A stretch of DNA of 64,000 nucleotides from Cyclobacteriaceae bacterium (GCA_034523095.1 JAXHKU010000017.1:5641-69640); one strand, 5' to 3'; positions 8,718-28,071 are shown, counted from the stretch's first letter. A program made the numbers and translations. Notes: a model not told the origin generated them from the letters alone.

Positions 8718-8985
8718 AATAGAAATAGTATCGAAACCCACAGGTTTGCGTGCAACACCGTGCAAAGCGCGACCATTTTTCTGTTCTGAACCACAATGGG
8801 AAGCGCAACCCGCCTTCCGCCTCTTTTATATCTCAAATATTCTCGAAAAACCCAGTATCGCACTTTCTCCCACCCCAACGTCCTTCTATATGCCGAAGCA
8901 TATATTTTCTTGATATTTTTCTCAATTATATCCAAATACATATAATTTAGTATATTTGAAATAGTATTATATCCAGAAGCATATA

Positions 8986-9195
8986 ATGAAGCAATTAGCG
9001 ACATTTGTTAAAGACCGCAGGAAAGAAGTCAATCTTACCCAGGAAGAATTCGCAGAACGTGCCGGTGTTGCGCTAACTGTGATCCGCAAAATAGAACAGG
9101 GAAAAACGAATTTGAATATGGATAAGGTAAACCTGGTACTTCGCATGTTTGGGCATGAGTTAGCGCCCGTTAACAGTAAAGAGCTTAATGAATGA
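8986..9195 (+). CDS. XRE-family helix-turn-helix protein, HipB-like antitoxin
   Basis: 69 aa ORF with an HTH signature (LTQEEFAERAGVALTVIRKIEQGKTNLNMDKV). Its stop overlaps the next start (ATGA). Confidence 0.8.
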   Translation: MKQLATFVKDRRKEVNLTQEEFAERAGVALTVIRKIEQGKTNLNMDKVNLVLRMFGHELAPVNSKELNE

Positions 9196-9527
9196 GACAA
9201 GGAAAGGTATTTTATAATGATCATTTGGCTGGTGTGATTACCGAAACAAATGAGGGCGAGTATGTATTCCAATATGACGAACGATACGTGGAAGATTATC
9301 CGGCGAAGTTCATCACATTCACTATGCCGGTTACAGATCAACCATACACCGACAAAAGACTCTTTCCATTTTTTGAAGGGCTGATCCCGGAAGGTTGGCT
9401 GCTGGATATTGCCTCTGAAAACTGGAAGATCAATAAAAATGACCGGATGGGACTACTATTGGCGTGTTGTCAGAATTGTATTGGCGCTGTGAGTGTTAAA
9501 CCCATAACAGAAGAGGATGCCGAATAG
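9192..9527 (+). CDS. HipA N-terminal-subdomain protein (HipS-like)
   Basis: 111 aa ORF with motifs LAGVITE..YVFQYDERY, FPFFEGLIPEGW and NCIGAVSV, typical of the HipA N-terminal coupling domain, encoded here as a separate small protein. Confidence 0.75.
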   Translation: MRQGKVFYNDHLAGVITETNEGEYVFQYDERYVEDYPAKFITFTMPVTDQPYTDKRLFPFFEGLIPEGWLLDIASENWKINKNDRMGLLLACCQNCIGAVSVKPITEEDAE

Positions 9528-10467
9528 ATGTTTGTATTGTTATAATACGGTAGAAGAAGGACTCGACTACCATGGAAAGTGTTCATTGGAATTCTTTGGC
9601 ACTTCAACACCTCCTAAAGTAGAGATACTCCCTGGATCAAATGGATGAACTTGCAAAATATATCGTGGAACGCAGTGTGGCGGTTCCCGGCGTTCAACCA
9701 AAATTGTCCATGTCATTGGTCAGGAAAGCTAAAGAAAAATGCAGATTCACGGCTGACTATCGTTGGTGCATTAGGTGGCCAATATATATTCAAACCGCCA
9801 TCTGACCGATTCCCCGAAATGCCCCAAAACGAACATGTGACCATGCGCATCGCGGCAAGTTGCGGAATTCGTGTGGTGCCTTCATCATTAATCCGATTGT
9901 CTTCCGGAGAACTATCCTACATCACTAAGCGTGTTGACCGCACAGAAGCCGGAGATAAAATCCATATGATTGACATGTTTCAGATCACCAAAGCGTTTGA
10001 TAAGTATAAAAGCTCCATGGAGAAGATTGGAAAGGCCCTCGGAAGTTATTCTGAAAATACATTGCTTGATAAAGTATTCTACTTTGAATTAGTTCTTTTC
10101 TCCTTTCTCACCGGCAACAACGATATGCATTTGAAAAATTTCTCCATGATAGAGAGCCCATCCGGCTGGGTACTGGCGCCTGCCTATGATTTGCTGAATG
10201 TAGCCATCGTACTACCGGAGGACAAAGAGGAACTTGCTTTGACATTAGCTGGAAAGAGGTCGAAGTTGAAGAGGGACCACTTCGAACAATTAGGCGGCGG
10301 ATTGGGCCTTACAGATAGAGCAGATCAAGGGGGCGTTCCAACGGATGATTAAAAGCAAGCCAAACTCCATCTACTGGATTGATCAATCATTCCTGACAGA
10401 CGACATGAAGATTGCCTATAAAGAGGTGCTTGACTCAAGATATAAACAATTAGCATTAACAGAATAA
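9517..10467 (+). pseudogene. HipA-family Ser/Thr kinase toxin (HipT-like) with about three frame breaks
   Basis: The reading starts at ATG 9517, overlapping the upstream stop (MPNRCLYCYNTVEEGLDYHGKCSLEFFG). The frame changes near 9620-9635, 9735-9740 (A5 run) and 10315-10325. Segments carry VPGVQPKLSMSL, FLTGNNDMHLKNFS and LAPAYDLLN. The final segment ends at TAA 10465-10467. Confidence 0.75.
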
Positions 10468-10711
10468 TGAATCCAATCGGGCGGTAGACCGATTGTCAAT
10501 AGACATTTCCATCATTCGATGTTTACTTTTGCCAATTTCACAGTACTACTGCTTGCCTAACTTGCAACAACTCCTGGGTTTTTAGCCATTATTTTCTCCG
10601 TGCTTTAGCACAACTCTAATTTAAGGTCCTGCGATTTCACTAAATCACTAACAGACATTATCTTTATTCATAAATCATCTGAATTATCAGAAACTAACCC
10701 ATTTCCAGCAT

Positions 10712-11692
10712 ATGAAACTTTTTAAATCATTTTTCCTACTAGCTATCTCTATAGCTACCATTGGTAACGCTCAGAACTATTCAAAGCTCTCTGAAATCCA
10801 GCGGCTTCAAATGCTCGAAAAACCCATGAAAGGCGCGGATGTTGTTTTCGACACAGATACTTATAATGAAATCGACGACCAGTTTGCTCTGGTGTATGCG
10901 CTGCTTTCCAAAGAGAGTTTCAACCTGCTGGGCGTTTACGCCGCACCATTCTCCAACAACCGTGCAGATAATCCCACAAAAGGGATGGAACTGAGTTATG
11001 AGGAGATCTTGCGGATACTGGGAAAAATGAATAAAAAGCCAGATAGTTTCGCATTCAAAGGTTCGAAGAACTACCTGAGCAAGGACCTGAAGCCTGAAAC
11101 CAGTCCTGCAGTAGAGGATATGATAAAAAAAGCAATGGCGCATTCGCCCGAAAAACCATTATACGTTGTGGCGGTCGGCGCCATCATTAACGTGGCAAAT
11201 GCCATCCTGCTAAAGCCCGAAATCACAAGGAATATCGTGGTGGTATGGCTGGGGGGAAATGCGCATACCTGGCCCGACACCAGGGAGTTTAACATGATGC
11301 AGGACATCGCTGCAACCAATGTGATTTTAGACAGCGGAGTACCTTTCGTGCAATTCCCATGCATGGGTGTGGTGAGCCAGTTTACCACCACCGTGCCGGA
11401 AATGGAACTGTATCTGAAAGGTAAAAATGCCATCTCCGATTACCTGCTCGAAATATTCAAAGATTACCACAAAGATCATTTCGCCTGGTCAAAAGTGCTC
11501 TGGGATATGACTTCCATTGCCTGGATGATCAACAGCGACTGGACACCTTCGCAGTTAGTCCATGCTCCACGCGTAAGCGATACCGATCAGTACATGTTCA
11601 ATGCCAACCGGCATCTGATCAGGATGGTGTATCACATTGATCGGGACGCGATTATGAAAGATTTCTTCCTGAAGTCGCAGGGGTTTAAATAG
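10712..11692 (+). CDS. Nucleoside hydrolase (IUNH family), secreted
   Basis: Intact 326 aa ORF with a signal peptide and the N-terminal aspartate cluster DTDTYNEIDDQFAL. Confidence 0.8.
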   Translation: MKLFKSFFLLAISIATIGNAQNYSKLSEIQRLQMLEKPMKGADVVFDTDTYNEIDDQFALVYALLSKESFNLLGVYAAPFSNNRADNPTKGMELSYEEILRILGKMNKKPDSFAFKGSKNYLSKDLKPETSPAVEDMIKKAMAHSPEKPLYVVAVGAIINVANAILLKPEITRNIVVVWLGGNAHTWPDTREFNMMQDIAATNVILDSGVPFVQFPCMGVVSQFTTTVPEMELYLKGKNAISDYLLEIFKDYHKDHFAWSKVLWDMTSIAWMINSDWTPSQLVHAPRVSDTDQYMFNANRHLIRMVYHIDRDAIMKDFFLKSQGFK

Positions 11693-11734
11693 CCCGTTAA
11701 CTTCTTATTGAGAAAGTTTTAGTAATTTTCAAGT

Positions 11735-11968
11735 ATGAATACGAAGGAGAAACTTATTGAGAAAATTTCGCATATCGAAGATGAATCTATCCTTGAAGAG
11801 ATTATGGAAATTGTTCAGCTGGAATTAGAGCTTGGAGCTGAAAGTATCCGACTTACTCAGGAGCAGAAAGTATTCATTGATGAAGGACTAAAGAACATTG
11901 AATCCGGAAATATAATTCCTGATGAAGAAGCCAAAAAAATGACCCGTGAATGGCTAAAAAGGAGATAA
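11735..11968 (+). CDS. Small acidic antitoxin-like protein (partner of the ParE/RelE toxin)
   Basis: 77 aa ORF that overlaps the downstream toxin gene by 19 nt. Typical size and position for a type II antitoxin. I recognise no specific family. Confidence 0.55.
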   Translation: MNTKEKLIEKISHIEDESILEEIMEIVQLELELGAESIRLTQEQKVFIDEGLKNIESGNIIPDEEAKKMTREWLKRR

Positions 11969-12249
11969 TATGGACTCTTAAGGCTATTCAGGACAAACTG
12001 GAAATTCTCGACTACTGGATTACCAACAACAAATCAAAAACCTTTAGCGAGAGACTTGATCAATTGTTCGATAAAGCCATTGAAAAACTACAATTTCAAG
12101 CGGAACTTGGAAAAAAGACTGACTACAAAAACATTCGAATAGTAATTGTGCGCCATTACTTAGTTTACTACCTGATCCGTGATCAACATATTGAGGTTGT
12201 AAGAATCTGGGATGCGCGTAGAAACCCAAAAAAGTTTATTGTGTCCTAA
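11950..12249 (+). CDS. Type II toxin-antitoxin system RelE/ParE family toxin
   Basis: 99 aa ORF whose C-terminal block YLVYYLIRDQHIEVVRIWDARRNPKKF is typical of the ParE/RelE fold. Confidence 0.7.
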   Translation: MAKKEIIWTLKAIQDKLEILDYWITNNKSKTFSERLDQLFDKAIEKLQFQAELGKKTDYKNIRIVIVRHYLVYYLIRDQHIEVVRIWDARRNPKKFIVS

Positions 12250-12351
12250 AAATCAACTACACCTTAACAATTATTCTAAAATTAATATTCCAGATCGTTA
12301 AACGCTCTTTGAATATTCGACCAACTTTATGGATCTTAATTTATACTATCA

Positions 12352-13197
12352 ATGATCCTCATCGCTGACAGCGGCTCAACTAAAACAGACTGGCGCCTTA
12401 TGGATGGAAGCAGGGAGATAACCCGCATCCAAACCAAAGGCTTCAATCCGTACTACCAACAATTGGGCGAAATGACCGCAGAGGTAGAAGGATCGTTGTC
12501 CCCATATGTAGAATCTGAACTCGTAGATACTATTTTCTTCTATGGTGCAGGCTGCTCCACCGCCGAGCGGCAGAAAAAGATTTCAGATGCATTGAAACCG
12601 TCATTCCGCAAAGCCGCGATATTCGTTTACTCTGATCTGCTCGGCGCTGCCCGTGCGCTCAGCGGCAACAAACCGGGTATCGTTTGTATCCTGGGTACAG
12701 GCTCCGGGTCATGTCGCTATGACGGCGAAAAAATAGCTGAAAACATTCCATCGCTCGGCTTTATTCTCGGCGACGAAGGCAGCGGAGCCTGGTTGGGCAA
12801 GAAAATGGTGACGGATTTCCTGCGTGGTCATATGCCGGAAAATTGCATGGAACTAATCCGCAAGGAACTGCTGATCGATAAGGAAATCATTCTGGAACAG
12901 GTGAATCACAAACCGATGCCGAGCCGTTACCTGGCCAGTTTCGCAAAATTTATCAGCGAGCATATCGATCAAACCTATTTCTATAAGCTCATATTCGACA
13001 GTTTCACCGCTTTCGCGGAAAACTATATTATCCGCTACGATCATTACGCCGAAACCAAATGTCACTTCGTTGGTTCGGTGGCTTATTACAACCAGGAAAT
13101 CCTGGAAAATGTGGCCAAATACAACGGTTTTTCTATCGGCAACATTATAAAAAGTCCTATCGATGGATTGACCTCTTATCATTCAAATCCAAAATAA
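12352..13197 (+). CDS. BadF/BadG/BcrA/BcrD-type ATPase sugar kinase (GlcNAc/MurNAc kinase, MurK-like)
   Basis: Intact 281 aa ORF with ASKHA phosphate motifs ILIADSGSTKTDWRL, ILGTGSGSC and GFILGDEGSGAWLG. It lies immediately upstream of murQ. Confidence 0.75.
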   Translation: MILIADSGSTKTDWRLMDGSREITRIQTKGFNPYYQQLGEMTAEVEGSLSPYVESELVDTIFFYGAGCSTAERQKKISDALKPSFRKAAIFVYSDLLGAARALSGNKPGIVCILGTGSGSCRYDGEKIAENIPSLGFILGDEGSGAWLGKKMVTDFLRGHMPENCMELIRKELLIDKEIILEQVNHKPMPSRYLASFAKFISEHIDQTYFYKLIFDSFTAFAENYIIRYDHYAETKCHFVGSVAYYNQEILENVAKYNGFSIGNIIKSPIDGLTSYHSNPK

Positions 13198-13204
13198 TCA
13201 ACCC

Positions 13205-14029
13205 GTGAGCACAACCGAATCACCTTCCTACTACGACAACCTGGAAAAGATGTCAGTGAGCGAATTACTCACCAACATCAATAAAGAGGACCAAACTGTG
13301 CCACACGCTGTGGCAAAGGTGATACCACAGATTGAAAAATTAGTAGAGCGGATTGTGGAGAAAATGAAGGAAGGGGGCCGCTTGTTTTACACCGGGGCAG
13401 GAACCAGTGGCAGGCTTGGAATCGTGGATGCCTCCGAGTGCCCGCCAACCTTTGGTGTGCCGCAGGATATGGTGATAGGGATTATGGCTGGCGGTGATCA
13501 GGCGATCAGAAAAGCCGTAGAATATGCAGAAGATGATCCGGAGCAGGGTTGGAGCGACCTTCTCAAACACAATATCACCAATAAGGATGTAGTCATAGGA
13601 ATTGCTGCGTCAGGCAGGACACCCTACGTGATAGGCGCTGTGAAAATGGCGCGGGAGAACGGTTTGGTGACCGGATGCATTACCTGCAACCAAAACTCAA
13701 GACTGGCAGAATCTGCTGAATTCCCAGTAGAGGTTGTTGTGGGACCTGAGTTTGTGACGGGAAGTACGCGGATGAAATCAGGCACCGCTCAGAAACTGGT
13801 GCTCAACATGATTTCAACAACCGTGATGATAAAGCTGGGGAAAGTGCGGGGAAATAAGATGGTGGATATGCAACTCACCAACGAAAAACTGGTGGACCGC
13901 GGCACCAAAATGATTATGCAGGAACTGGGTGTGGATTATGAAACCGCTAACAATCTGTTGTTAACACACGGCTCAGTGAGGAAGGCAGTTGATGCGGTGA
14001 AGGGAGGGTATTTTGCGGATGATGTTTAA
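13205..14029 (+). CDS. murQ: N-acetylmuramic acid 6-phosphate etherase
   Basis: 274 aa ORF with a GTG start and SIS-domain motifs GAGTSGRLGIVDASECPPTFG and GIAASGRTPYV. Confidence 0.85.
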   Translation: MSTTESPSYYDNLEKMSVSELLTNINKEDQTVPHAVAKVIPQIEKLVERIVEKMKEGGRLFYTGAGTSGRLGIVDASECPPTFGVPQDMVIGIMAGGDQAIRKAVEYAEDDPEQGWSDLLKHNITNKDVVIGIAASGRTPYVIGAVKMARENGLVTGCITCNQNSRLAESAEFPVEVVVGPEFVTGSTRMKSGTAQKLVLNMISTTVMIKLGKVRGNKMVDMQLTNEKLVDRGTKMIMQELGVDYETANNLLLTHGSVRKAVDAVKGGYFADDV

Positions 14030-15247
14030 ATGCTCCGGTAAATCTGGTCGTAAGCGGCAACTCCTTGTTCCAGAGAGAAGTACTTCACGGCATGTTGCCT
14101 TATGGATTCACCGGTAAACTGGAGGGATAAGAAGGATGTCACGGCATTATCGTAGGCTGTTTCATTGAAGCCATTCACCAGAACTCCAGCCCTGGTTTTC
14201 TTTAAGATATCATCCACATCACCCCAGCCTGTGTTCGTGAAGACTGGCTTTCCCCATGGCCATGATCTCTCCCATTTTAGTGGCAGCCGAAGCTTTTTTG
14301 CTGTAGGACGGTTTGATGAAGAAGATCGACGCGGAAGAAACCGAGATAAAAAGCGGCACATCGGCCCTTGAAGAAGAAGTATGGATAATTTCGCCGTGAT
14401 TATAGTTTCGGGATGTAAGCGCTACTTTCAATACTTGCTGGTCCGGTGACACAAAAAGGAAGCGGGGCTTATCCATTTTCGACCTCAAAATATCATAAAA
14501 ATCCAGCATCTCTTCCAGCATGTACCATGTACCCAGTGAACCGAGATACAGCAAAACGAAGTCGCCTTGATGAATTCCCAACTCATGCTTTACCCCTTCT
14601 ATTTTTTCATGGGACACTCTTTCTGGATTGAAATGATTCATATCGGCGCAAGTAGGAATGACAGCGATTTTGTCGATCTTACCATTGAACTGTTGAACTG
14701 TTGAACCGAAATTCTCCCATTGTTCTATTTCTTGTTTGGCATTTTCAGTAAGCGAAATCACTGCATTGGCCTCTTCAATAAACTGCCTTTCCTTTTTCTT
14801 GAAATATCCATAAACCCACCTGAACAACGGGTTCGACATATTCCACAGCCCGCCTTCCACCCGCTCATCCGCCCAGAAACCGCGCATATCAAAGATGAAC
14901 TTTGTCCCGAATCTGTGTTTCGCCCATAAACCTACTAGGCTCGTTACATAGCTGCGGCAATGAACAATGTCGATTTTCTGGGTTTTCAGCACTTTTTTAA
15001 CCGCTCTTTTCAGCAGATAAAGATCATACAGTGTAGATAGTACAGGTGGCGATTTGTGGTATTTCAAAGGAATAATATTTAACCGGGGACCCAGTCCGAG
15101 GAACCCGGCACCTTTAACTTTTTCAAAACTGATGATAGTGATAGCGTGCCCGCGAGCCCCGAGTCCTTCAAGGTAAGGCAATATCTGCGACTGACCAAGT
15201 GGGTCAGACAGGCCATCGTAGGTGAGGTAGAGGATGGACTTTGGCAT
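14026..15247 (-). pseudogene. Glycosyltransferase family 4 with a single frame break near 14248-14256
   Basis: ORF 14219..15247 (MPKSILYLTYDGLSDPLGQSQILPYLEGL...) continues in ORF 14026..14361 (GKPVFTNTGWGDVDDIL...). The junction is at GGGGAAAG, so a one-base homopolymer change restores MGKPVFTNTGWG. Confidence 0.75.
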
Positions 15248-15250
15248 ACC
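15100..15250. repeat. Direct repeat copy A (5' end of the GT4 gene)
   Basis: About 140-150 bp align by eye at roughly 85-90 percent identity with 18190..18341 in the same orientation (shared core ggtaaggcaatatctgcgactgaccaagtgggt..catcgtaggtgaggtagaggatgga). Confidence 0.7.
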
Positions 15251-15259
15251 GGGAGAACC

Positions 15260-17942
15260 CTAAAAACCAGGCAACTTAAATTTCATGGTCACCTCACCTG
15301 TTTCTTTGTTCACTACGATATTCTGGCTGTCGATAACCATATCTTTTCCAGTGGACATCTTGAACAATCCTGCGAGGAATTGCATACCATTGTTCATAAC
15401 CTGCTCCATTTCCCGAGCTTTTTGTTCCTGCGTGCTCGCCATTTCCTGACTGCCCGCCGCTTCGTTGGTTTCCTCATCCCTTCTTCAGAAAAATCAATTT
15501 CCATCTGCATTGCTTTGGTCGATGTCTCGGTTTCGGTGAGTGCCAAATGTTCTGCTTCAATATCCGCCTGCATCATAATCGAGGGTTCCATCGCGTCTTC
15601 AGATGTGATGGCGGCCTCGGCCTCTAGCTCGAGTTGGCCGAGCATCTCTTCCAATTGTGCAATAAACTGCGACTTGCCCTTTTGTGAAAAATCCACGAAA
15701 TCCATATCGCTCGATTTGTCCAGCACACCATCGAAGAGGTTTTGCTTCAGCAGGAGCCCTGCGGCGATGGACTCTTCAATGGATTTGCGGGTAATGAAGT
15801 TGTAAATGGTGAGCTTGTGGCTCTTTTGTCCCAGCCGGTCAATTCGTCCAATGCGTTGATTTTTCTTTGCGGGATTCCACGGAAGTTCAAAGTTGATAAG
15901 CGTATTTGCCACCTGCAGGTTTAATCCTGCTCCTCCTGCTTCTGTGCTAAGAAAAACCTTGATCTGTGGGTCAGACTCGAATTTTTTAATCACATCACCG
16001 CGTTGGTTTACCGGTACCTTTCCGCTGAGTTCTACGAAGCCGATATCATATTTGCGGAGCATTTCACCGATAAGCTTATGCACTTTTCTCCATTCGGAGA
16101 ATATGATCAGTTTGATGTCATTGTTTTGAATGTCGAGTTTCTCCAGCAGCATATACTCGAGCTCCAGGAGTTTTGGCGATTCGTTGGTCTGATCGTCGAT
16201 CAGGTAAGTGGAATCGCATACCATTCGCATGTTAGCCAGCAGCAGTTGAATGCGCTGTAGGTCGAATGGTGTGAGGAAAGGTTTGTTCAGAATCATGGTG
16301 AGCGATCGGGCAAACCCACCATGCAATTCCTGCTGCAGTGGCGATAACATGACCGGTATTTCGATCTGCCTCACATTTGGCAACTGGTCGAGAACATGCC
16401 TTTTTTGTCGGCGAATGACTACCTGCCTTAGCTTTTCGTTGAGTGTACTTAGATTGTAGTACCCGTTTATTTTGTCTTTGCGCTCCGGATCGAAGAGGCA
16501 GTGCTGATAGGAAAACTCCCACAGAGGGCCAAAAAACCGGGGATTCAGAAAACTCATGATAGAGAATATGTCGATCAGCTTGTTTTCGATGGGCGTACCG
16601 GTAATCACCAGCGTGTGTTTAGGATTAAGTCGCTTGACGGCGGAGGCCGTTTTAGTTTCGAAGTTCTTAACCCTCTGTGCCTCGTCCAGGATCAGGAAGT
16701 CGATCCCTGCCCGGTTTATTGCGGAAGCATCGCGCAGGATGGTTTCGTAGTTGACGATCAGGAAATACGTGGCACTGTCATGATAAATGCGTTCGCGCTG
16801 CTGAGGAGTTCCATCAACGATCAGGACATTTTCATCGGTGAAACGTTCTATTTCCTTTTTCCACTGCGATTTTAAGGACGCCGGGCATACGATAAGGGCT
16901 TTTCTAAACCCGAATATTTGCTTCTTAAGTATGGCCACGGCTATGGCCTGAAGGGTTTTTCCAAGGCCCATCTCATCGGCGATGATGGCGGCCTTCCTGA
17001 ATAAGACAAAGGCGACCCCTTCTTTCTGATAGTCGAACAGATCGGCGCTTATAGCACTGAAATCCAAGCTGGCGTTGTTCGCTAACTGCCTTAGCAGCTT
17101 TTCATCGAAAAACGACTCGACCAGATCAGGTACCTCAGGACGAATCTTTATATTTTCAAAAGATTTGGCTTCTTCCAGAAAGCCGGCAAAATTCTCTGTC
17201 TCTCCATCGTCAATAAATGTGCTGCTGCCGAAGTACTTACTGATGAGTGCTTTCTCTTCATCGCCTATTTCGTGCGGATAGTACCAGGAAATCTTATATT
17301 CGTTCAGTGGATCGCAGAATATTTCGATGAACGGATACTCCTGCGATAAGCGTCTGAAAAGATTCTTATCTTTCTTCAGCTGATCAAAGGCAAACATAAT
17401 GTGCTTGGTGGTGCCTAATTTATTTAGCCTGGCATCTTCGCTGTCACTGTAGCCGGTTTCATTCGTGAAGTCACGCAGGAATACCTTGTACGATATGCCC
17501 TCTTCGTTGGTCAGTAAATGATCGCCATGGATATTTGACGCCCATTTTATCCGATAATCAGCCTTTTCGCACGCAGCCTTCGCTCCTCAAGTACACGGTT
17601 TTTCATACCTTCACAGGTGTATCGCTTATGTTCATCACTCCCTTTCGGATTAAGTGCGTTGAGCTCATCCTTTATTACTAAAAGACATGCATATCCGGCA
17701 TCATCCCAGGGGGTATTTAGGCCCAACTGAGAAAATACCCAATCATCATTCACTATGCCCAAGGCACAGAATTTTGCGTTGGGCGTATCATGTTCGATGG
17801 TGAAATCAAAGCGGCTGCCTGCTTGCGACAAAAGGATACACCTTCCTTCATCACGCCACTTCCTCCCGTTGGCTATCTCGCCGGGCGTCAGTTGAATTTC
17901 CAGTATTTCTAATTGTTCCTTTACTCGCGCTTTCAAATTCAT
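15260..17942 (-). pseudogene. SNF2-family (DEAD/DEAH box) helicase with two frame breaks
   Basis: The main ORF 15394..17397 carries DEMGLGKTLQAI, LILDEAQRVKN, TGTPIENKL and STEAGGAGLNLQ..ELPWNPAKKNQRIGRIDRLGQ. The N-terminal 131 aa ORF 17547..17942 joins it through a shift between 17547 and 17590 (TTTT at 17565-17568). The C-terminal 60 aa ORF 15260..15442 joins at CCC 15478-15480. Confidence 0.8.
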
Positions 17943-18122
17943 AAGGCTTGGATATTACTGACAAATTGTTTTCAATACTATGGAATGCGTTCGGTTTTTT
18001 AAAGATACCATGATGAAAAGTTTGAAGATTTGAGGCAGACAGGTGCTCTTAGGTGAATTTTACTTGAATAGTTTGCCTGTCAAAAAGAAATGTCGGGATC
18101 AGGGTATATATTAGACTCAAAA

Positions 18123-18341
18123 TTAATCAATAAGTCTCCATTGAATGCGCCGATAGATATTTCCGTTGTGGTTCCATTGTATCGCACTGAACCAGCGCCC
18201 AGCAGCCTTAACTTTTTGAAAACTGATTATCGTGATAGGGTGCCCGAGAGCTGCCAGTCCTTCGAGGTAAGGCAATATCTGCGACTGACCAAGTGGGTAA
18301 GATAGACCATCGTAGGTGAGGTAGAGGATGGATATTTTCAA
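18123..18341 (-). pseudogene. 5' remnant of a GT4 glycosyltransferase paralog
   Basis: Its first 48 codons or so (KISILYLTYDGLSYPLGQSQILPYLEGLAALGHPITIISFQKVKAAG) parallel the N-terminus of the 14026..15247 gene. Similarity then ends and no downstream GT domain follows. Confidence 0.7.
18190..18341. repeat. Direct repeat copy B (GT4 5' remnant)
   Basis: Partner of 15100..15250. The two copies bracket the SNF2 gene. Confidence 0.7.
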
Positions 18342-18344
18342 AGT

Positions 18345-19231
18345 TTAGCTTTTCAGCATAATAAGTGAATTAAGATATGAATACGAATTGCGGTGAAAAA
18401 CAATAGGAAGGAAAATACGAATGGAAATAGGATAATATTTCAGAGAGAAACTTGAATGAGGCCCTGGACAAATGATTGGCCAAGTAGAGGTAGCGGTGGG
18501 CTTTGAATTGGGACATTGACCGGCCGAGAAATTTCTGATGTCAGCATCCGCGTTTACAATTTCAATACTTTTTTTAATACGGCGAATGAGTTGATGTTGA
18601 TTAAAATTAATCACACTGCGACCTCTGTGTTGCACCACATAGGCAGATATTCTATTGGAATACCGCAGAGGAAAAAGACTCGCCAGTTTCAGCCAAAGCA
18701 AATAATCTTCAGAGCCAATAATGTCTGGATCTTCATTGAATTGATGTTGCTCTAGAATATCCTTTTTAACAAAAACCCCTATGCAGCTCAGGTGGTTGCC
18801 GGTGATCAATGACTGATTTATATTGCCTTTACGCCTATGTTCTTTCCTGAGAACCCTCCCCGCTTCATCCCTGATTTCATAAGCAATGTGAAACCACTCA
18901 GGTCGATTGTATTGCTTTATTAATGTTAGGGCTTCATCTAGGTAATGAGGATACAATTCATCATCGCTATCCAAAAAAGTGATGTAATCCCCAGCAGCCT
19001 GCAGAATGCCAAAATTGCGCGCGATGGCCCGCTCTTCATTTTCTTTTTAAAGTATTTGATGCGCGGATCTTGAATAGATGAAATAACCTGCTCGGTATTG
19101 TCAGCACTTCCGTCATCGATAATGATTATTTCAAAATCAGAATAATGCTGATCAAACGCCGACTGGATTGAGCTTAAAATCCGATCTGCGCGGTTGTAGG
19201 TAGGGATGATGATGGAGAATTTAACCGACAT
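18345..19231 (-). pseudogene. Glycosyltransferase family 2, frame-broken
   Basis: The N-terminus is MSVKFSIIIPTYNRADRI..FEIIIIDDGSADNT (ORF 18938..19252, ATG at 19231). A shift at the T5/A5 run 19044-19048 joins ..ERAIARNFGILQAAGDYITFLDSDDELYP (ORF 18345..18974). The C-terminal ~60 codons look out of frame too. Confidence 0.75.
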
Positions 19232-19405
19232 AATGTAAAAGAGTTGGTGCAAGAACCAAGGTCAGACGATAGTCTGGCCGTATTATCCTTCGAAACCAGT
19301 CAGTAAAATGTGATCTAACACCCAAACACTCACAGAACTGATACAGATAAAACCCAAATAGCAAATTTTACTTTCAATTTTAAAAAGGGGGTTTCTACCA
19401 GATAA

Positions 19406-20428
19406 TCAAGAAAACAAAGCACAAATGAATATAGCAATGATATTTATCGGGAAATAAGTCAAATATTTGTATTTAAGCCATAAGGAAGTACTACCCAGGA
19501 ACAACTGCTGCCATACGTATAAACTATATGAAAGCTTTCCAATAAAACTTAAAGGTTTTGTTTCAAATAAAACACCTAAGCTCGATTCTGGATAAAGCAA
19601 AAAATAGCTAAATATCACAGTATTACCAAGAAGGATCAAATTACCAAAAATTACAATATTAATGCCAGTTTTATATTCATGAATGGAACTGATTAAGACC
19701 AAAATAAAAGCTAATCCAAGAATAATATCTTTGTACGATGAAAAAATACTTTTAATAGCATACTTATAATTTACTATGATATAGCGCATTAAACACCCTA
19801 CGAACAAGAAGTCAACATGCATAAAAAATGGCCCACCCACCCATCTGGAAATTTCAGGAAAAGAATAATTTAATGCCCTGAAAAAAGTACCAGTTACAAC
19901 GACACCGACTCCAATTATTAAAAAACTATTCTTAATCTTGGCAAGAGTGTTTTTAAATAAAAATGGGTAAATGAGATAAAATTGTTCTTCAACTGATAAT
20001 GACCAAGCGTGTTTAACAAACCAAGTGGATACGAATACTTCACCATTTTGCCAGACGTTATAATTCTGAATGTATAGAAATGCTAATAAAATGGCTTCAT
20101 ATGATATTTGAATGATTTCGAAATAGGCCAAAAAAGCCAAAAACGCAAGATAAAAATAGAAACTTGGAAAAATTCTTAGCACCCTTCTGGCAAAAAAGTT
20201 CTTAATACTTATTCTACCGGTACTTTTATACTCAATTAATAAAACATGGGTTATTAAATAACCACTTAAAAGAAAAAAAAGTCGAACGCCTAAAGTCCCT
20301 AACCCCAAAGATTGAAAAGCATTATTAATAAATTGAGGAAAGTTGGGAGTATGCGTCAAATGAGAAATTAGAACAAGCGTTATTGCAAATGCTCGTAAAC
20401 CATTTAATGAGGGAATATACTTAGTCAT
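19406..20428 (-). CDS. Acyltransferase family 3 (O-acyltransferase) membrane protein
   Basis: Intact 340 aa polytopic ORF starting LNGLRAFAITLVLISH. It is markedly AT-rich (about one-third GC by eye) compared with its neighbours. Confidence 0.8.
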   Translation of the reverse strand: MTKYIPSLNGLRAFAITLVLISHLTHTPNFPQFINNAFQSLGLGTLGVRLFFLLSGYLITHVLLIEYKSTGRISIKNFFARRVLRIFPSFYFYLAFLAFLAYFEIIQISYEAILLAFLYIQNYNVWQNGEVFVSTWFVKHAWSLSVEEQFYLIYPFLFKNTLAKIKNSFLIIGVGVVVTGTFFRALNYSFPEISRWVGGPFFMHVDFLFVGCLMRYIIVNYKYAIKSIFSSYKDIILGLAFILVLISSIHEYKTGINIVIFGNLILLGNTVIFSYFLLYPESSLGVLFETKPLSFIGKLSYSLYVWQQLFLGSTSLWLKYKYLTYFPINIIAIFICALFS

Positions 20429-20741
20429 CTAAGAACCAAAATGGTAAAAATGTACTACGCTTTTAAAAAGTGTAGGAATAGATCGACACTATTTCTAAGA
20501 CTAAAAATCAATAAGACCTAAGCATTTTTTGAAATTAGCAGGCTCTATTTTCAGGGAATAATCTATTGGTCTTATCTCATTTTTTTTCTGGCTCATTTCA
20601 GCAAAAAAAAATGATCCCTATGAACAGGAGTGTCGGCAATCGCCAAAAAACAATTATACATACGATCAGGCAAAGGATGAAACATTAGCTCCTGATGCCT
20701 GTCTCTATTCCAAAATATCTGGCAATAGCACGTTCGTTATT

Positions 20742-20930
20742 TTACTTTTTGAAAAACCAAATTCTATTATCCTTGCAGGTTTTTACTAGTTCCTCCCTAT
20801 CATCCGATGAGCCGCCATCCGCCAAAATCAACTCAAAATTTGCATAGGACTGAGTTACAACCAAATGAATGCAATGAATTAATACTCCAGCGCGATTATA
20901 AGTAGGGATGATGATAGAAATTAGGAACAT
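20742..20930 (-). pseudogene. Truncated glycosyltransferase family 2 (N-terminal ~60 codons only)
   Basis: MFLISIIIPTYNRAGVL..FELILADGGSSDD is followed by a stop. Only a short out-of-frame NERAIARYFG relic lies downstream, and no catalytic C-terminal half exists before the acyltransferase gene. Confidence 0.65.
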
Positions 20931-20949
20931 TGGTTCGAAGTTTTTCCTA

Positions 20950-22075
20950 CTAAATCCGTTCATAAACCGTTTCAAATTGCGGAATTATCCTTTCAATTGT
21001 AAACTCCCTTCTAACATATTCCTGAGCATTACACCCTATTCTTTCCACCAATGATTTATCATAGTACAGGGCCGACACAATCTCTGACAATCTTATCTAT
21101 ATTCTTAAAGGGAACAATAAAACCATTGCTATAATGTTCTATTACGTCAGTAGCGCCAGATACAGGAGTAATCACCAAAGGAACCCCAAGCGCCATAGTT
21201 TCAATCATAATTTGAGGAAAGGCTTCTTGTAGTGTGGGGTGTACAACGACATCCATGCAATTTATCAACCTATGAGCATCTTTTCTCCAACCTGCAAAAA
21301 CAACAGCATCCTGCAATTGGCGCTGTTCCACTGCTTCACAAAGACTGGAATGAAATGGGCCGTCACCAATCATCAACATCAATATATCAGGTAATTGTTT
21401 ATGCAATCCATGAAATGCTTCAATCAGATACAATTGTCCTTTGATGTTATGATGTCGAGCGATATTTCCGATTACGAATTTATTATTGATGCCCAGTTTT
21501 TGTTTTAAATTACTAATTTCATCTAATGACAAAGTATTGTATCTACTCTTTGAAAAATCAAATGGGTACGGAATGAGTTTTATTTTTTCTGGAGATACCC
21601 CTTGTCTTTTTAGTAATTCCACAATAGCTGTAGATGGTACTATTATTGCCGAGGCTACTGAATTAACAATCTTCTCTACAAAAAGATAAAACCAAAGTTT
21701 AGCGCCCGAAGTCGTAAGATAAAACTGGTCGTGATAATGTCGGCCTACAATATGCCTGGTTTTATGACTCATTAAACAAGCCATTGTACCTATAACAGCT
21801 TCGTAATAATGATGTGTATGAAGTATATCAATATTTTCTCTTCGCAGAATCCTCGATAAGCGCCATGCTCCCCAAAACATATAAAACCACCCATGATCGA
21901 TCTCAAGATTGAAAAAGGGAATTCCGGCCTTTTCATAGTAAGGGTTTTCTATATTGGATTCTCCACGGTATGAAGACGCCATCATTTTGAAATTAATCGG
22001 ATTAGCATTTTTCACTACGACATCTATGAAGTCATGATTGTTGATAACTTTGCTAAAATGGAGCAGATTCTTCAT
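20950..22075 (-). pseudogene. Glycosyltransferase family 4 (group 1) with a frame break near 21095-21105
   Basis: ORF 21059..22075 carries the GT1 C-terminal signature (VVHPTLQEAFPQIMIETMALGVPLVITPVSG). The last ~45 codons (LSEIVSALYYDKSLVERIGCNAQEYVRREFTIERIIPQFETVYERI) read in another frame ending at 20950. Confidence 0.7.
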
Positions 22076-22087
22076 GGGCTGTAGTTA

Positions 22088-23147
22088 TTAATTATGTGAA
22101 ACGGCTTTCATGAAGTTCTTGCGAAATAGTTCAATAGCGTTATTTTCAGTATAAGAAGAGGCCACCATCTTACACTGTCGAGACAGACAAAGTTTATCTT
22201 CGGCTGAAAGTTTAAAAAACCATTTTATCCTTTCAACAATCATATGCTCATCTAGTGGCACTACCAAATCTTCAGAAACCTGGCGCACACATTCCTTCGT
22301 TCCTGTCCATTCCTGAAACAATTGGAACAATACCAGCCTGCATTGCTTCATTTACAGTGATTCCCCATGCATCACCTCTTGCCGTATGTAAATAAATGGC
22401 TGCCCCTTCCAGAAAACTCGCCAAAGATTCTATGACACCGACAAAGCGGACTTTCTCAGGATTATGCATACTAGCCACAAGGTCTGTCTTTCGGATAGAA
22501 TCCCATTCTCCTGCAATATCAAAAACTACATCATACCCCTCGGTGATAAGGCAGATCAACTGCCCGTACCATAAGATCTAGGCCTTTATACCATAATCTC
22601 CAGGAGGCCCCAGCATTACCTATAAATACAATTCTCTTGCTTGCTACGTCATACTTTACCGATGTCAATTGCTTTATCCTTTCTTCAGAAACACCATTAA
22701 TTCCAGTAAATATGAATTTGTGCTTATTAACAATTCTATTGACTAAGGCGGACTTCATTCTTTCCAATGCAAATCCAAGCGGAATACTGCCGGTATGCCC
22801 ACGAATTTACCGCATGAGAGTCGGGAGTAGTACCTGGAATAAATGAAATAAGGAGATTCATCATCCACTAAGGCAATTAATTTAATTTTCCCTAAGCTGA
22901 GAATTTTAGATAAAACCAATGTAATTCTGAGACCCTCGGTGAGTACAATACATTTCTTATAATGTATGAAGTAAAAGGCATTTATAAACCATGCGAGATA
23001 TCTTATTGGTGCCGAATAATGCCTGTCGTGCCATCTGAACCACGGGTCTTCATAGGTAAAATGATTTGTGACAGAAGCACCATACTTGGCGTGTAAAGGA
23101 TGACCGGAAGGTCGACCATGAACAAATATCACTTTTTGACTGCTCAT
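22088..23147 (-). pseudogene. Glycosyltransferase group 1/GT4-like gene in four frame segments
   Basis: Co-linear ORFs 22755..23147, 22531..22767, 22272..22559 and 22088..22351. The third carries HTARGDAWGITVNEAMQAGIVPIVS (an EX7E-type GT1 region). Confidence 0.65.
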
Positions 23148-24327
23148 ATTTCAAAGCCGGCATAATTCAGATTACTCTCCAGCCGACTAAAGTAGTGTTC
23201 TAATGTATAATGGCTCATTACTTTTTGTCTCGCTTTCTCCCCCATTTCGGCCAAATATTCTTTGTTATCTATCGCCCAGGAAATGGATTCGGCTACAGCT
23301 TCAGGTGTATTGCTGTCGAGTATATATCCATCTATACCATGTTCAATGATGTCCGGGGCGGCGCTGAAACGGCTACCGATAACCGGCAGACCGTGTGCCA
23401 TTGCCTCCAGAATCACCATTCCGAAAGCATCGTTTAAGGAGGGAAATATCAAGGCATCAGCATCGCTGTATATTTTGGATAATTGTTCTTTATTTACCGG
23501 TCCGGTAAAAGTAATGTTTTCAGGGCAAGGTTGTATAAATGGTATTGCCTCTGGCAATATTTTCCCAACCAAAACAATCTCCAGTGCTTCATTTGTAAAA
23601 CCTCTTATCGCTTTTATAAGTGTATGTATCCCTTTCAATAGTTCAAGCCTTCCCACAAACAATAGCCGTAGCTTTCCGTCAACGTGCTTCATTTTTTGCA
23701 AATTGGAAAAATTATTAATTTCAATTCCCAGTTGACATAGGAGGATTTTTTTCTCATCGAAACCACGGCTCACAAATGTCCTCTTACAAAAGAGGAATGC
23801 ACCTGAATAAAATCGGCTGTACTGCACTCCTCCTTCATTCGCTTTATTACCCCACGTGAAAAACGGCTATATCCGGGTTTTATGAGGATATCTGGATCTC
23901 GGTAGAAACTCTCATTTACACCCATCCAGTAATCTACATATGGCATAGGATGCTCAAGAATACACTTGCCACCAAATTTTTTGTTCTTCTTCATGCTCCA
24001 TAATGATGTCTGTGACCAGGCGATCAGTATTTACAGGCTTAGCAAAACATGCTGAACAAAGTGATCGTAATACCGCAATAAAAACGACTTGTGTAACTGA
24101 CGGCCATCAGTGAGCCGCTCCAATCGGTGATTAATCCCATAGGCGATATAACTGGCGAAGTCGTATAACCAATTATCTTTCCTGTGCCAAACACCTTTAT
24201 ATCGTTGCTACAACTAAAGTTTGGCCAGTAACGCAGAGAGTAAAACGACTTTACCTTTTTGATCAAAAAACTGATAAATAGATTCCGAATGAGAGCCGGC
24301 CTGAACTAAAAAAAATGGCATATTCAT
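23144..24327 (-). pseudogene. Glycosyltransferase family 4 in at least four frame segments
   Basis: The C-terminal ORF 23144..23827 carries LLFVGRLELLKG and IFPSLNDAFGMVILEAMAHGLPVIGS. The upstream pieces 23770..23994 and 24039..24266, plus a short N-terminal piece from ATG 24327, are in different frames. Confidence 0.7.
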
Positions 24328-24384
24328 ATTAACTCAGCGTCGCTTTTATAATATCAGGATTTTTCCTGCCGTTGAAATAGGTCA

Positions 24385-25323
24385 TCACTTCGCTATCAAT
24401 ATCCGCCACCTGACATTTATCATAATTAATATTTTCCATGCTGCCTTAAGACGGGCTTTCCTGTCCATTAATTCGCTTTCACGAGTCATGTCTACCGGAA
24501 AAAACATGGCTTTTAACCCAAGTCCCAATACAAGTATCAAATTGTCTAGCGTATTGATCAAAAAGTTAATAAGTGCATTATTGTATCCATAGTGATCTTC
24601 CCTTATCCTCCACTCGTGACTGCAACTCAGTAATCTGGCCATATAAACTCTATTTGGGTCTCTCTTGAAACTGACACTTCCATGATGAATAATTTTAATA
24701 TCCGGTACGACGAATATCTCAAACCCTCTATTGACAATTTCCTTACAAAGTGGATACTCCTCCCAAAAAAGAAATGAACTTTCATCGTAAATATAATTCT
24801 GAGGTAGAGCAGCCCTTCTGATCATCATCCTGTGCGAAAAATAAAATCCACTTTTGCGGCAATTTGGTTGATTGAAGGGTTTTTGGCTTTTTGGGAAAAA
24901 ATAACATTCAAAAAATGAAGACGGGTATACTTTTCGAAGATTGTGACGGGTAATGATTCCCTGCCCTGATTAATAGTGTTTAGGCCTATCTTTCCGACAT
25001 TGGGGTGAGCCTCCATGTAATTAATGCATCGCTCAAATGTATTCTTGAAAACCTCTGCATCCGGATTAAATGAAAAGATATACCTCCCTTTTGACTCCCG
25101 GTATGCCTGATTCATGGCTCGCGCAAATCCAAAATTAAAGTGATTAAAAAACCATTTTACTTGCGGGTAATCGAGTGCTAAACTTTGGGTATTGTCAGTC
25201 GAATTATTATCTACAACTGATGATTTCAAAAGAAAAGCTTGTTTCACTTTCCAAAATTGAAGTTAGGCAATCTTTTAGAAAACTTCGCGTATTATATGAA
25301 ATTATGAGGACGCTTAAATCCAA
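24385..25323 (-). pseudogene. Glycosyltransferase family 2 in three frame segments
   Basis: The N-terminal relic is LDLSVLIISYNTRSFLKDCL (about 25323 downward). It is followed by ORF 24825..25247 (VVDNNSTDNT..FGFARAMNQA) and ORF 24385..24828 (MMIRRAAL..EEYPLCKEIVNRGFEIFVVPDIKIIHHGS). The start codon is uncertain. Confidence 0.7.
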
Positions 25324-25464
25324 TTCCTTCTATTAAAAACCATCAAATCATTTTTAGAAGGTGTTGGGTATCATGCAAATTTAAAATTCCTCTCCTGTTG
25401 TTTTCCAGATCAAAATAGGATAGACTTTTTAACATTTTCTATGGATAAGTGACTCTTTGAGATA

Positions 25465-26034
25465 TTACGTTTTTCCTTCGTTCGTGTAATTACACCTCAG
25501 GCCATAATCACAGTCGGCGACAAACACTTCAAGTTCCGGATGAGTTTGGTTTAAGAAATAGATCGCCTTCCATACATCTCCATTCCAAATACCTTTGTAG
25601 CCTCTTTTTTGCCAGTCAAGGAAGGAACAAGCAGCTTCCTCACTTGCTGGATTGCAATCGTGAACAATTATGAAACCATTTTCTTCAAGATACTTGAGGG
25701 CGTTCAGATACTATCCATTTAGGGCAAGCTCAAACTCATGCATCCCATCGATCAATACAATGTCAACCTTGCTCTTTTTAAATACTTTATCCGCCTCCTT
25801 TTCGAAAAATTCGTCACTGGTTGTTTGACTGGAACATTGGTCCACGCAACATGCTGAGATCCGATTTTTAACTGATTTCCTTCGAATCCAAACTTAAAAT
25901 TTGGGTCAACTGCGATTTTTCGATTGCATTTGACCATAAAAAAGACATTCCCGTCCCTGACCCCAATTTCTAAATAACTTTTTCAAATGATGCTTATTGA
26001 TCAATCCTTTCAAATTCAATTGATATCTTTCCAT
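25465..26034 (-). pseudogene. Class I SAM-dependent methyltransferase with frame breaks and an in-frame TAG
   Basis: The minus strand reads VDIVLIDGMHEFELALNG*YLNALKYLEENGFIIVHDCNPASEE..WNGDVWKAIYFLNQTHPELEVFVADCDYGL, with TAG at 25711-25713. The upstream segments (MERYQLNLKG.. / LEIGVRDGNVFFMVKCNRKIAVDPNF) are in other frames. Confidence 0.6.
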
Positions 26035-26103
26035 GAAATTCAGTCGATATTTTATTCTAATAACAAACGCAGCGTCCCCTTCCAAAAAGACACATCACCA
26101 TAG

Positions 26104-27259
26104 TCATAGGCACCATGCTTCAACATTTGGCTTGCCGTTATCAATGATTTTCAAAAGTGCATATATCCTCATGCTCATCAATTCGTGCAACATGGGGTTG
26201 ATTGAAAAATGTATATATCGAATAACTCCTCGAGCAAGTATCCCAGGTTCAATCATAAGTGTCATTGTTTTTCTTAAGACATTTGACTCCATTGAAAAAA
26301 TTCTCCTTTTCGCTGAATTCAATATTATGACAAACAGGTCACACTTCATCGCCTCCTCCTTAAAATCGATTTCAAATTCAATAAACACTGGATTGCTAGA
26401 TCAAAAATTCACGACAATTATTTCCTTGCTCATCTTTTAAACGGATTGATTTGAAATACAATGGACTGTCTTTAGACTTATGCTTTGATCAGGTGTTCGT
26501 TGGAACTTTTATTATCCGAGTTGTAAAATCGAATTGATTGTAATGGTGGTGCATCAAGCCCTACTATCCCGGATTTTAATACCATCACGCGGACGCAAAG
26601 TTTACTGATTGCGTTCAGGTCATGACTCACAAATAAAATAGTCCTCCCTCCTTCTTACTCACCTCATCCATCTTACCAGACACTTCTTCTGGAACTCGGC
26701 ATCGCCCACTGCCAGGACTTCATCGATGATGAGTATTTCGGGTTCTAAGTGGGCGGCGACAGAAAAGGCAAGCCGCACCGTCATGCCGCTGCTGTAATGC
26801 TTCACGGGGGTGTCGAGGAATTTCTCTACGCCGCTGAAATCGACAATTTCATCAAACTTAGCTTTGATTTCGCGCCGCTTCATGCCCAGAATAGTACCGT
26901 TGAGGTAGATATTTTCCCGACCCGTGAGTTCTGCATGAAACCCGGTACCAACCTCAAGCAGGGACGACACACGGCCATTGATCTCAAATCGGCCGGTAGA
27001 AGGACTCGTGATGCGCGAGAGTATCTTCAGAAGTGTGCTTTTTCCAGCCCCATTTCTTCCAATAATGCCCACGGCTTCCCCTTTCTTGATTTCAAAATTA
27101 ATATCGCGCAAAGCCCAGAACTCTTCTTTCATGGCCGGCATTCTTCCCAAATAAATCTTGTAGCTTGTCAGAAAAAGCATTTCTTAGATCACCGGCTTTC
27201 TTATGGCCGATGATATATTTTTTCCCCAGGTTTTCTACTTTGACCGCAATATCACTCAT
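26104..27259 (-). pseudogene. wzt: Polysaccharide/O-antigen ABC transporter ATP-binding protein, frame-broken
   Basis: ATG 27257-27259 overlaps the wzm stop (ATGA). The N-terminus MSDIAVKVENLGKKYIIGHKK shifts near 27130-27150 into ORF 26659..27180, which carries Walker [10 protein letters not shown], signature [12 protein letters not shown] and Walker [13 protein letters not shown]. Further shifts follow FQKKCL. The extent of the C-terminal domain is uncertain. Confidence 0.7.
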
Positions 27260-28071
27260 ACAATATCCGCCATTATACTTTCCACGCGCCTGAAATATAT
27301 CAATCCGGTGACAAAAAGCAGGAGGATCACCGCCGTAGAGATATAAAAATAAATATCAGGTTGAGCCCCGCCAAATATACTCCATCTGAAACCCTGAATC
27401 ACGCCTGCCATAGGATTTAGATTATAGATCAACTGAAACTTCTCCGGAACAAGCCTCGCAGGATACGCCACCGGTGTGGCATATAAACCAAACTGCACGA
27501 TAAAAGGCACCACATGCTGAAAATCGCGGTACCTTATAGTTAAGGCGCTTAGCCAAATTCCTACTGCAAGTGCGGCCATAATATTCAAAATGATGAACAG
27601 TGGCGCAAATGCGACTTGCACCGGAGGCAGGTATTGGTAATAAACCATAAGTATAACCAAAAACATCAGCGCCACTCCGAAGTCCACAAAACCTACCATT
27701 GCCTTACTCAAAGGGATAACCAAACGCGGAAAGTAAATTTTCTTGATCATTTCCTGGGCTCCCACAATACTTGTTCCTGATTGGTTTAAAACAAAACCAA
27801 AGTATGCCCACATGGATATACCACTAATGGCAAATAAGGGATAAGGAATCCCTCCCGTGTCAACTTTCACCGCCATGCCAAATACTAAAACAAAAACGGT
27901 GAGCGTAGCCAGCGGCTGCAATAGTGCCCAAGTAAATCCAAGGAAAGTCTGGGCGTATCGCACACGCAGGTCGCGGTAGGCCAGCACGGCGAACAAATCG
28001 CGGTAGGCCAGCAATTCGCGCCAGTTAATTCTGAATTTGCTTTGCCTTGCATCAACAATAATCCTGGACAT
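27256..28071 (-). CDS. wzm: ABC-2 type polysaccharide export permease
   Basis: Intact 271 aa ORF with about 6 TM segments and an N-terminal RDLRVRYAQTFLGFTWALLQPL block typical of Wzm/TagG/KpsM permeases. Confidence 0.8.
   Translation of the reverse strand: MSRIIVDARQSKFRINWRELLAYRDLFAVLAYRDLRVRYAQTFLGFTWALLQPLATLTVFVLVFGMAVKVDTGGIPYPLFAISGISMWAYFGFVLNQSGTSIVGAQEMIKKIYFPRLVIPLSKAMVGFVDFGVALMFLVILMVYYQYLPPVQVAFAPLFIILNIMAALAVGIWLSALTIRYRDFQHVVPFIVQFGLYATPVAYPARLVPEKFQLIYNLNPMAGVIQGFRWSIFGGAQPDIYFYISTAVILLLFVTGLIYFRRVESIMADIV

Follow-up and report, generated by a model that had tools for sequence, protein, structure and literature searches.

Many genes of a glycan biosynthesis locus in a Cytophagales bacterium are interrupted by shifts of the reading frame, and these frame breaks most probably come from errors of the assembly or the consensus, concentrated in a patch over an ordinary Wzm/Wzt glycan locus. 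The window, i.e. the whole stretch of 64,000 nucleotides analyzed here (GCA_034523095.1, JAXHKU010000017.1:5641-69640; G000:C17:5641-69640 in our numbering), belongs to a metagenome-assembled genome (MAG) of 5.07 Mb, distributed in 39 contigs with 44% GC, with a completeness of 91.9% and a contamination of 2.8%. The locus occupies positions 14026-28071 on the minus strand, and includes the genes for the permease (Wzm) and the ATPase (Wzt) of an ATP-binding cassette (ABC) transporter, glycosyltransferases of families GT2 and GT4, a methyltransferase, an acyltransferase and an SNF2-family helicase; positions given without a contig name refer to the window. An earlier note on this DNA had offered two explanations for the broken genes: either a surface-polysaccharide locus is being inactivated, or the assembly is poor at this place. 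The second one is supported by our results, given that lesions of the same kind break rpoB, rpoC, infB, recA, gyrA and groEL; the first one is not, given that the ABC domain of Wzt remains under purifying selection despite at least six frame lesions in its gene. Most or all of the point lesions are probably consensus errors that remained in a long-read or hybrid assembly of strongly uneven base accuracy; the locus would fall in a poorly corrected patch, with its core as the worst part.

The breaks were mapped by tblastn with intact homologues (the proteins of a syntenic contig, L009, and the Wzt, GT2 and GT4 proteins of relatives), together with three-frame views of the junctions. Approximately 21 frameshifts and two in-frame stops were located in the locus, so that the figure of at least 15 frame breaks in the earlier note turned out to be conservative. 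About half of the shifts are +1 (one base too many) and half are -1 (one base too few). Where the junction could be narrowed to a few bases, the shifts lie in runs of one to six identical bases, and several lie in no run. The broken genes align essentially over their full length with the intact homologues, with the frames alternating along the alignment; no larger deletions were seen in these alignments, and all the shifts are of the single-base type. The lesions are not evenly spread, their density is about 3.5 per kb in the core of the locus (22.1-27.2 kb) versus about 0.6 per kb in the outer part (14.0-22.1 kb). Homopolymer runs of four or more bases occur at 22 per kb in both the core and the outer locus, and at 30 per kb in the acyltransferase-3 gene, which is homopolymer-rich, has 31% GC and is intact; lesion density does not track homopolymer content. 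An alternative genetic code was ruled out, since the homologues align in shifted frames and not across stops.

A first line of evidence comes from genes that the cell cannot do without. Around 27 housekeeping genes of the genome were surveyed by sequence motifs, and the fragments obtained were then inspected. The earlier note had named, as an observation that would refute its reading, frame breaks of equal density in other parts of the genome where the homopolymer content is comparable, and such breaks were found. The genes rpoB, split in pieces of 977, 175 and 145 amino acids (aa), and rpoC, split in pieces of 70, 522 and 883 aa, carry five single-base frameshifts in 8.3 kb (C30:28770-37028), in runs of one to six bases and in both directions; this rate of 0.6 per kb is the rate of the outer glycan locus, and the lesion spectrum is the same. 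In addition, infB is split in pieces of 342, 202 and 456 aa (C27, ~31.4-34.2 kb), recA in 200 and 168 aa (C30, ~87.4-88.4 kb), gyrA in at least three pieces (C9, ~347.4-350.0 kb) and groEL in two (C8, ~25.1-26.5 kb). The TIGR02013 model of RpoB matches three separate pieces in this genome, whereas in seven of eight relatives its match is a single open frame, 1294-1336 aa long; in the eighth the match is uninterrupted (871 aa, model positions 413-1237) and is ended by the end of the contig. The rpoB locus is the only one in the genome, and a cell cannot live with rpoB, rpoC and the other genes broken; therefore, these lesions are errors. The survey gives a total of about 11 lesions in about 70 kb of housekeeping genes, or ~0.16 per kb. 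The four long uninterrupted open reading frames (ORFs) that the earlier note had set against the broken genes (997, 1075, 891 and 340 codons) are present, but at this rate an ORF of 3 kb would be intact about 60% of the time, and therefore they weigh little.

A second line of evidence comes from the redundant parts of the assembly. When the assembly was compared with itself, C9:31206-45406 turned out to be an inverted copy of C9:49617-63823: the two align over 14.5 kb at 86.9% identity, and the alignment contains 1320 mismatches and 407 gap openings. The arrangement resembles a chimeric long read of the fold-back type that was incorporated into C9, a contig nearly devoid of long ORFs over its first ~56 kb. 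Other redundant contigs or unmerged overlaps of contig ends (C28 with C39:33-45 kb, C6 with C7, C3 with C35, and the start of C27 with the end of C7) show 87-97% identity and are rich in single-base gaps, and copies at ~87% identity show one gap opening per 33-36 bp. Gaps are present in both copies of these redundant pairs; about 85% of them are of 1 bp, and about half are found away from homopolymers. The ratio of mismatches to gaps is ~1-3:1, versus ~25:1 in natural paralogues of the same genome (125:5 and 83:3). The assembly thus contains uncorrected long-read sequence, and the error level across the redundant copies goes from near zero up to that of raw reads, ~13%. The earlier note had argued from the unevenness of the breaks against uniformly distributed sequencing error; uniform error is indeed ruled out, but the error in this genome is demonstrably non-uniform.

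When the locus is compared with its surroundings the picture depends on the scale. The contrast drawn in the earlier note between the locus and its neighborhood holds within the window, given that in the rest of it (~44 kb, excluding a patch at 52-57.7 kb) a single split gene was seen, a HipA-like gene at 8534-9341. It does not hold against the rest of the genome: for long-ORF coverage (stop-to-stop ORFs of at least 200 aa) the region 14026-28071 lies at about the 15th percentile among the 14 kb segments of the genome, and the core at the 5th percentile among interior 5 kb segments. Patches of 3 kb or more with less than 15% cover by ORFs of at least 150 aa number 59 and add up to 308 kb, so that ~6% of the genome is in patches worse than the glycan locus, although a low-cover patch is not always an error, as C10:523-529 kb is a CRISPR (clustered regularly interspaced short palindromic repeats) array. 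Segments of 5 kb with less than 30% long-ORF cover represent 17 of the 78 terminal segments versus 32 of the 847 interior ones (odds ratio 7.1, p=8e-8); this enrichment of poorly coding patches at contig ends is a property of the assembly and not of the biology.

The third line of evidence is the substitution record of wzt. The region of its ABC domain (26677-27129) has 89-93% amino-acid identity to that of the relatives, and the alignment shows the Walker A, Walker B, signature and H-loop motifs; the frame is interrupted. A branch test was carried out on this domain using the MAG L010 as the sister and each of four other relatives in turn as the outgroup. The codon changes specific to the window were 19-29 synonymous versus 0-2 nonsynonymous, and those on the sister branch 25-26 synonymous versus 1-2 nonsynonymous. 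There are 125 positions at which five relatives do not vary; the window departs from them at one, and the functional relatives at zero to five. If the gene were truly decaying, with five or more substitutions per indel, this stretch should contain about eight or more nonsynonymous changes, and only 0-2 were observed, even though wzt carries its six or more frame lesions within 1.25 kb. The ratio of nonsynonymous to synonymous change (dN/dS), which the earlier note had proposed as a check on inactivation, in consequence does not bear out decay in the domain where it was obtained: it shows strong purifying selection up to the present sequence, and no relaxed selection. Lesions without a load of substitutions fit consensus indel error and not decay. 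For the GT4 gene at 23147-24327, the conserved columns of ten homologues were used in a similar way; 17 deviations were found in 110 columns, and equally distant functional homologues fall in the same range.

Several observations weigh against attributing the frame breaks to the assembly. Lesions are about 20 times denser in the core than in the average housekeeping gene and about six times denser than in rpoB and rpoC, and the cause of this excess is only inferred, the likeliest one being that the locus is a strain-variable island with a low read depth or one missed by short-read polishing. Two in-frame stops are impossible from indel errors. The test of selection spans 453 nt of one gene only. 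Within the locus, wzm and the AT- and homopolymer-rich acyltransferase gene are intact, which selection on still-useful genes would also explain. Finally, the case for an artefact is an indirect one, argued from the deposited sequence.

Some of these points can be placed against what the error itself would produce. In the redundant copies of this genome substitutions are at least as frequent as indels, and, allowing one to two substitution errors per indel, the ~21 indels would be accompanied in the locus by ~20-40 substitution errors. A stop arises from about 4% of random sense-codon substitutions (23 of 549 in the genetic code); therefore, one or two stops would be expected, and two are observed. 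Regarding the intact genes, the chance under the error model of finding no lesion is ~0.5 for the acyltransferase gene at the rate of the outer locus, and ~0.06 for wzm at the rate of the core.

Genuine pseudogenization, in which the glycan has been lost, for instance under pressure from phages or grazers, and the operon is decaying by real indels and nonsense mutations, with wzm and the acyltransferase gene intact by chance or because they are still used, appears unlikely. It is known that O-antigen and capsule loci decay in host-restricted or phage-selected bacteria, as in rough variants, and the present locus resembles them in that many glycosyltransferases of one operon carry inactivating lesions. 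The density of lesions in the core, far above the background of the window, the two stops, the intact homopolymer-rich acyltransferase gene and the signs of real remodeling discussed below (a GT2 stub, a GT4 stub and the SNF2 insertion) would all agree with such a history. However, the lesions that break the glycan genes are of the same types as those in rpoB, rpoC, infB, recA, gyrA and groEL, which cannot be pseudogenes; on the branch of the window dN is far below dS, and 124 of the 125 invariant residues are kept; no gene of the locus has been shortened by its lesions, all of which are of the single-base type. The present case thus differs from decaying O-antigen and capsule loci in having no substitution load, no relaxed selection and no loss of length, with rpoB and rpoC equally hit, and we know of no bacterial pseudogenes that show multiple hits per gene without a load of substitutions.

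It is similarly improbable that a part of the damage is real, with a Cytophagales population discarding a surface glycan and the stub arrangements recording a cassette insertion that duplicated the 5' end of the downstream transferase gene.

A consensus of mixed strains, in which the alleles that coexisting strains carry at a hypervariable locus were merged into a mosaic with indels that exist in no single genome, would be another sort of artefact, and we consider it less probable still. The content of the locus is specific to this genome, with only wzm, the wzt ABC domain and one GT4 in common with the relatives, and both the contamination of the MAG and its redundant contigs are compatible with a mixture; nonetheless, diverged alleles should yield chiefly substitutions and chimeric joins rather than lone single-base shifts within genes that are coherent in other respects, and the same lesions are seen in rpoB and rpoC, neither of which is hypervariable.

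Rescue at the level of expression, with frames that are broken in the DNA restored by transcriptional or ribosomal slippage, as occurs in some endosymbionts at long poly(A) tracts, was rejected and has a negligible probability: a few lesions do lie in A5-A6 runs, but most lie in runs of one to four bases or in no run, slippery motifs are largely absent at the junctions, the shifts go in both directions, the in-frame stops would stay unrescued, and the genome is that of a 5 Mb Cytophagales of free-living type and not of a reduced symbiont.

Residual error in the consensus, which we favor, has known counterparts. In four sources (the proovframe preprint 10.1101/2021.08.23.457338, PMC9262707, PMC8812927, PMC8103633), indel-dominated residual consensus errors are described as fragmenting the ORFs of long-read and hybrid genome and metagenome assemblies. 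As in the cases described there, single-base indels here split full-length, well-conserved genes, essential ones included; the errors persist where polishing is unreliable, and completeness of the CheckM type is lowered (91.9% in this genome, with only 39 contigs). There are also differences, since many of the lesions found here lie in very short runs or in none, with +1 and -1 shifts about equally frequent, whereas the textbook nanopore error is a deletion in a long homopolymer; furthermore, the patchiness of this assembly is extreme, going from almost clean sequence to the level of raw reads.

The gene content of the locus was established by Pfam and homologue searches (Table 1), and the list of genes, their order and the state of each one agree with those in the earlier note. 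For the Pfam search of the methyltransferase, and for the local alignment of the GT4 at 23147..24327, the pieces were joined with X at the lesions. There are six GT2 and GT4 genes in the locus, stubs aside.

Table 1. Genes of the glycan locus in the order in which they are read (28071 to 14026), with their lesions and the matches that identify them.
Feature	Position	Strand	State and lesions	Evidence
wzm (ABC-2 permease), 271 aa	27256..28071	-	intact	Pfam ABC2_membrane, E=4e-15, model positions 3-211 of 211
wzt (ABC ATPase with putative divergent C-terminal domain)	26040..27265	-	broken; at least 6 frameshifts, near 27135, 26677, 26648, 26480, 26400 and 26120; 0 stops	Pfam ABC_tran, E=1e-22; tblastn with relatives' Wzt, frames -1, -2, -1, -3
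class I S-adenosylmethionine-dependent methyltransferase (Methyltransf_24)	25465..26034	-	broken; 2 frameshifts, ~25985 and ~25880; in-frame TAG 25711-25713	Pfam, 28.7 bits, barely above the cut-off of 26.3
GT2	24385..25323	-	broken; frameshifts 25218 and ~24832; 0 stops	Pfam Glycos_transf_2; tblastn with 322 aa GT2 of L009, query 1-35, 36-167 and 164-282 in frames -2, -3, -2
GT4	23147..24327	-	broken; frameshifts ~24262, ~24180 and ~23797; in-frame TAA 24031-24033	Pfam Glycos_transf_1, E=3e-34; closest homologues 46-56% identical, 391-399 aa
GT4-like	22088..23150	-	broken; frameshifts ~22790, ~22555 and ~22318; 0 stops	L009 protein of 353 aa aligns by tblastn as four pieces (frames -3, -2, -3, -1); one piece matches Pfam Glycos_transf_1
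GT4	20950..22075	-	one frameshift, ~21085, near the 3' end; 0 stops	Pfam Glyco_transf_4 and Glycos_transf_1; 379 aa GT4 of L009, query 5-335 in one frame, C-terminus in another
GT2 5' stub, ~75 codons	20697..20984	-		Pfam Glycos_transf_2, model positions 1-49 only
acyltransferase-3, 340 aa	19406..20428	-	intact	Pfam Acyl_transf_3, model positions 2-321 of 326
GT2	18345..19231	-	one frameshift near 19046, inside an A-run; 0 stops	both pieces match Pfam Glycos_transf_2; alignment at 57% with a relative's GT2 (322 aa), in two frames
GT4 5' stub	18123..18344	-		diverged duplicate of the start of GT4 14026-15247
SNF2-family helicase	15260..17954	-	likely frameshift near 15478, possible one near 17570 (1-2 in total); 0 stops	Pfam SNF2-rel_dom, E=7e-46, and Helicase_C; frame views
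GT4	14026..15247	-	one frameshift near 14253; 0 stops	Pfam Glyco_transf_4; homologues 49-58% identical, query 4-319 and 319-384 in two frames

The protein Wzm aligns over its full length, at 86% identity, with that of its nearest relative, the Cyclobacteriaceae MAG L010, and its nearest named relatives are Cytophagales MAGs labelled Cyclobacteriaceae or 'Roseivirgaceae'. The gene for the Wzt-type ATPase adjoins wzm; past its ABC domain, where a glycan-binding C-terminal domain would be expected in this class, there are about 170 codons in shifting frames, with no Pfam match and no BLAST match to the C-termini of the relatives' Wzt. Neither a Wzx flippase nor a Wzy polymerase was found in 14-28 kb, where the sole polytopic ORF is the Acyl_transf_3 protein. 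The presence of Wzm and Wzt and the lack of Wzx and Wzy therefore indicate an ABC-transporter-dependent glycan locus, and on its gene content the region is identified as an ordinary cluster of this class (O-antigen or capsule type), unusual in its SNF2 insertion. The Wzm/Wzt pathway is known from O-antigen and capsule loci such as those of E. coli O8 and O9a, which have the terminator WbdD. The locus described here shares with them the order of Wzm followed by a Wzt with a putative additional C-terminal domain, a methyltransferase gene directly downstream, which is probably of the chain-end type, a series of GT2 and GT4 genes together with an O-acyltransferase, and the lack of Wzx and Wzy (in 14-28 kb). 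It differs from them in its Cytophagales context, in a Wzt C-terminal domain with no detectable family match, in the inserted SNF2 helicase, and in a core of glycosyltransferases that is syntenic with a contig where wzm and wzt were not seen.

This contig, L009 (52.5 kb, from Logan SRR31724203), carries at 9031-18891 an intact block of genes for GT2, GT4, Methyltransf_21, GT4-like, GT4, GT2, Methyltransf_21, AsnB and GT4, whose proteins are 42-56% identical to those of the window. Since neither wzm nor wzt is present within the 21 kb of it that were read, the transferase module may serve a different export pathway there. Closer copies of the locus were sought in several ways. In a DNA search of 30 relatives the wzt ABC domain was the only shared part of the locus. 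Exact-protein look-ups with the acyltransferase and Wzm, for an independent assembly of the same strain, returned none, though near-identical records may lie outside this search, and a scan of metagenomes with the acyltransferase found no relative.

Besides its point lesions, the locus shows features of another kind. The GT2 stub at 20697-20984 is a structural truncation and not a point lesion; its identity to residues 35-108 of a relative's GT2 (322 aa) is 55%, and the full-length counterpart of that GT2 lies at 18345-19231. In the case of the GT4 stub, positions 18198-18332 repeat positions 15104-15238 (135 bp, 88.9% identical); the two copies differ by 15 mismatches without any gap, which is a pattern of natural divergence. 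By tblastn this stub is 67-73% identical to the N-termini of GT4 homologues. The arrangement of a 5' stub, a foreign gene and a full-length glycosyltransferase occurs twice in a row, first as GT2 stub, acyltransferase and GT2, and then as GT4 stub, SNF2 and GT4, and cassettes may have been inserted in this way, through recombination at the 5' end of the gene that follows. A gene for SNF2 was found beside wzm in none of 41 related wzm loci, and the SNF2 of the window gave no tblastn match in 28.07-28.96 kb. The two stubs and the SNF2 insertion are probably a real remodeling of the locus and not base-level error; alternatively, they may be an assembly chimera.

Other regions of the window and of the genome show fragmented genes. 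On the minus strand, at 8534-9341, a split HipA-like kinase is represented by ORFs of 156 and 124 aa that overlap and lie in different frames; its inactivation is suspect given the error rate across the genome. Between 52150 and 57730 there is no ORF longer than ~130 aa, and fragments of SusD and SusC are found in many frames, e.g. at 54345-54713, 55440-55748 and 56288-56584 on the minus strand; judged by eye from these fragments, this patch is much more broken than the glycan locus. In a tblastn comparison of the patch with the genome's own long ORFs, meant for a count of lesions, the paralogues were too distant. The large CRISPR array at C10:523000-529000 shows repeated peptide words in all frames, and it is followed by ~10 kb of fragmented ORFs (up to 539500) that include a piece with an HD domain, Cas3-like; the cas genes there appear to be frame-broken too. 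Rfam and tRNA scans of the window gave no matches.

If the frame breaks of the glycan locus were real, they would document the loss of a surface glycan, a familiar theme of modest interest. The chief worth of the result is a caution on calls of the pseudogene type in this genome, which is a species representative and in which the base accuracy along the contigs varies more than 100-fold. Whenever a 'pseudogene', a 'decayed locus' or an 'inactivated kinase' is called in this genome, the call should be treated as suspect until the reads have been checked, and this applies also to the HipA-like kinase and the SusC/SusD desert of this same window.

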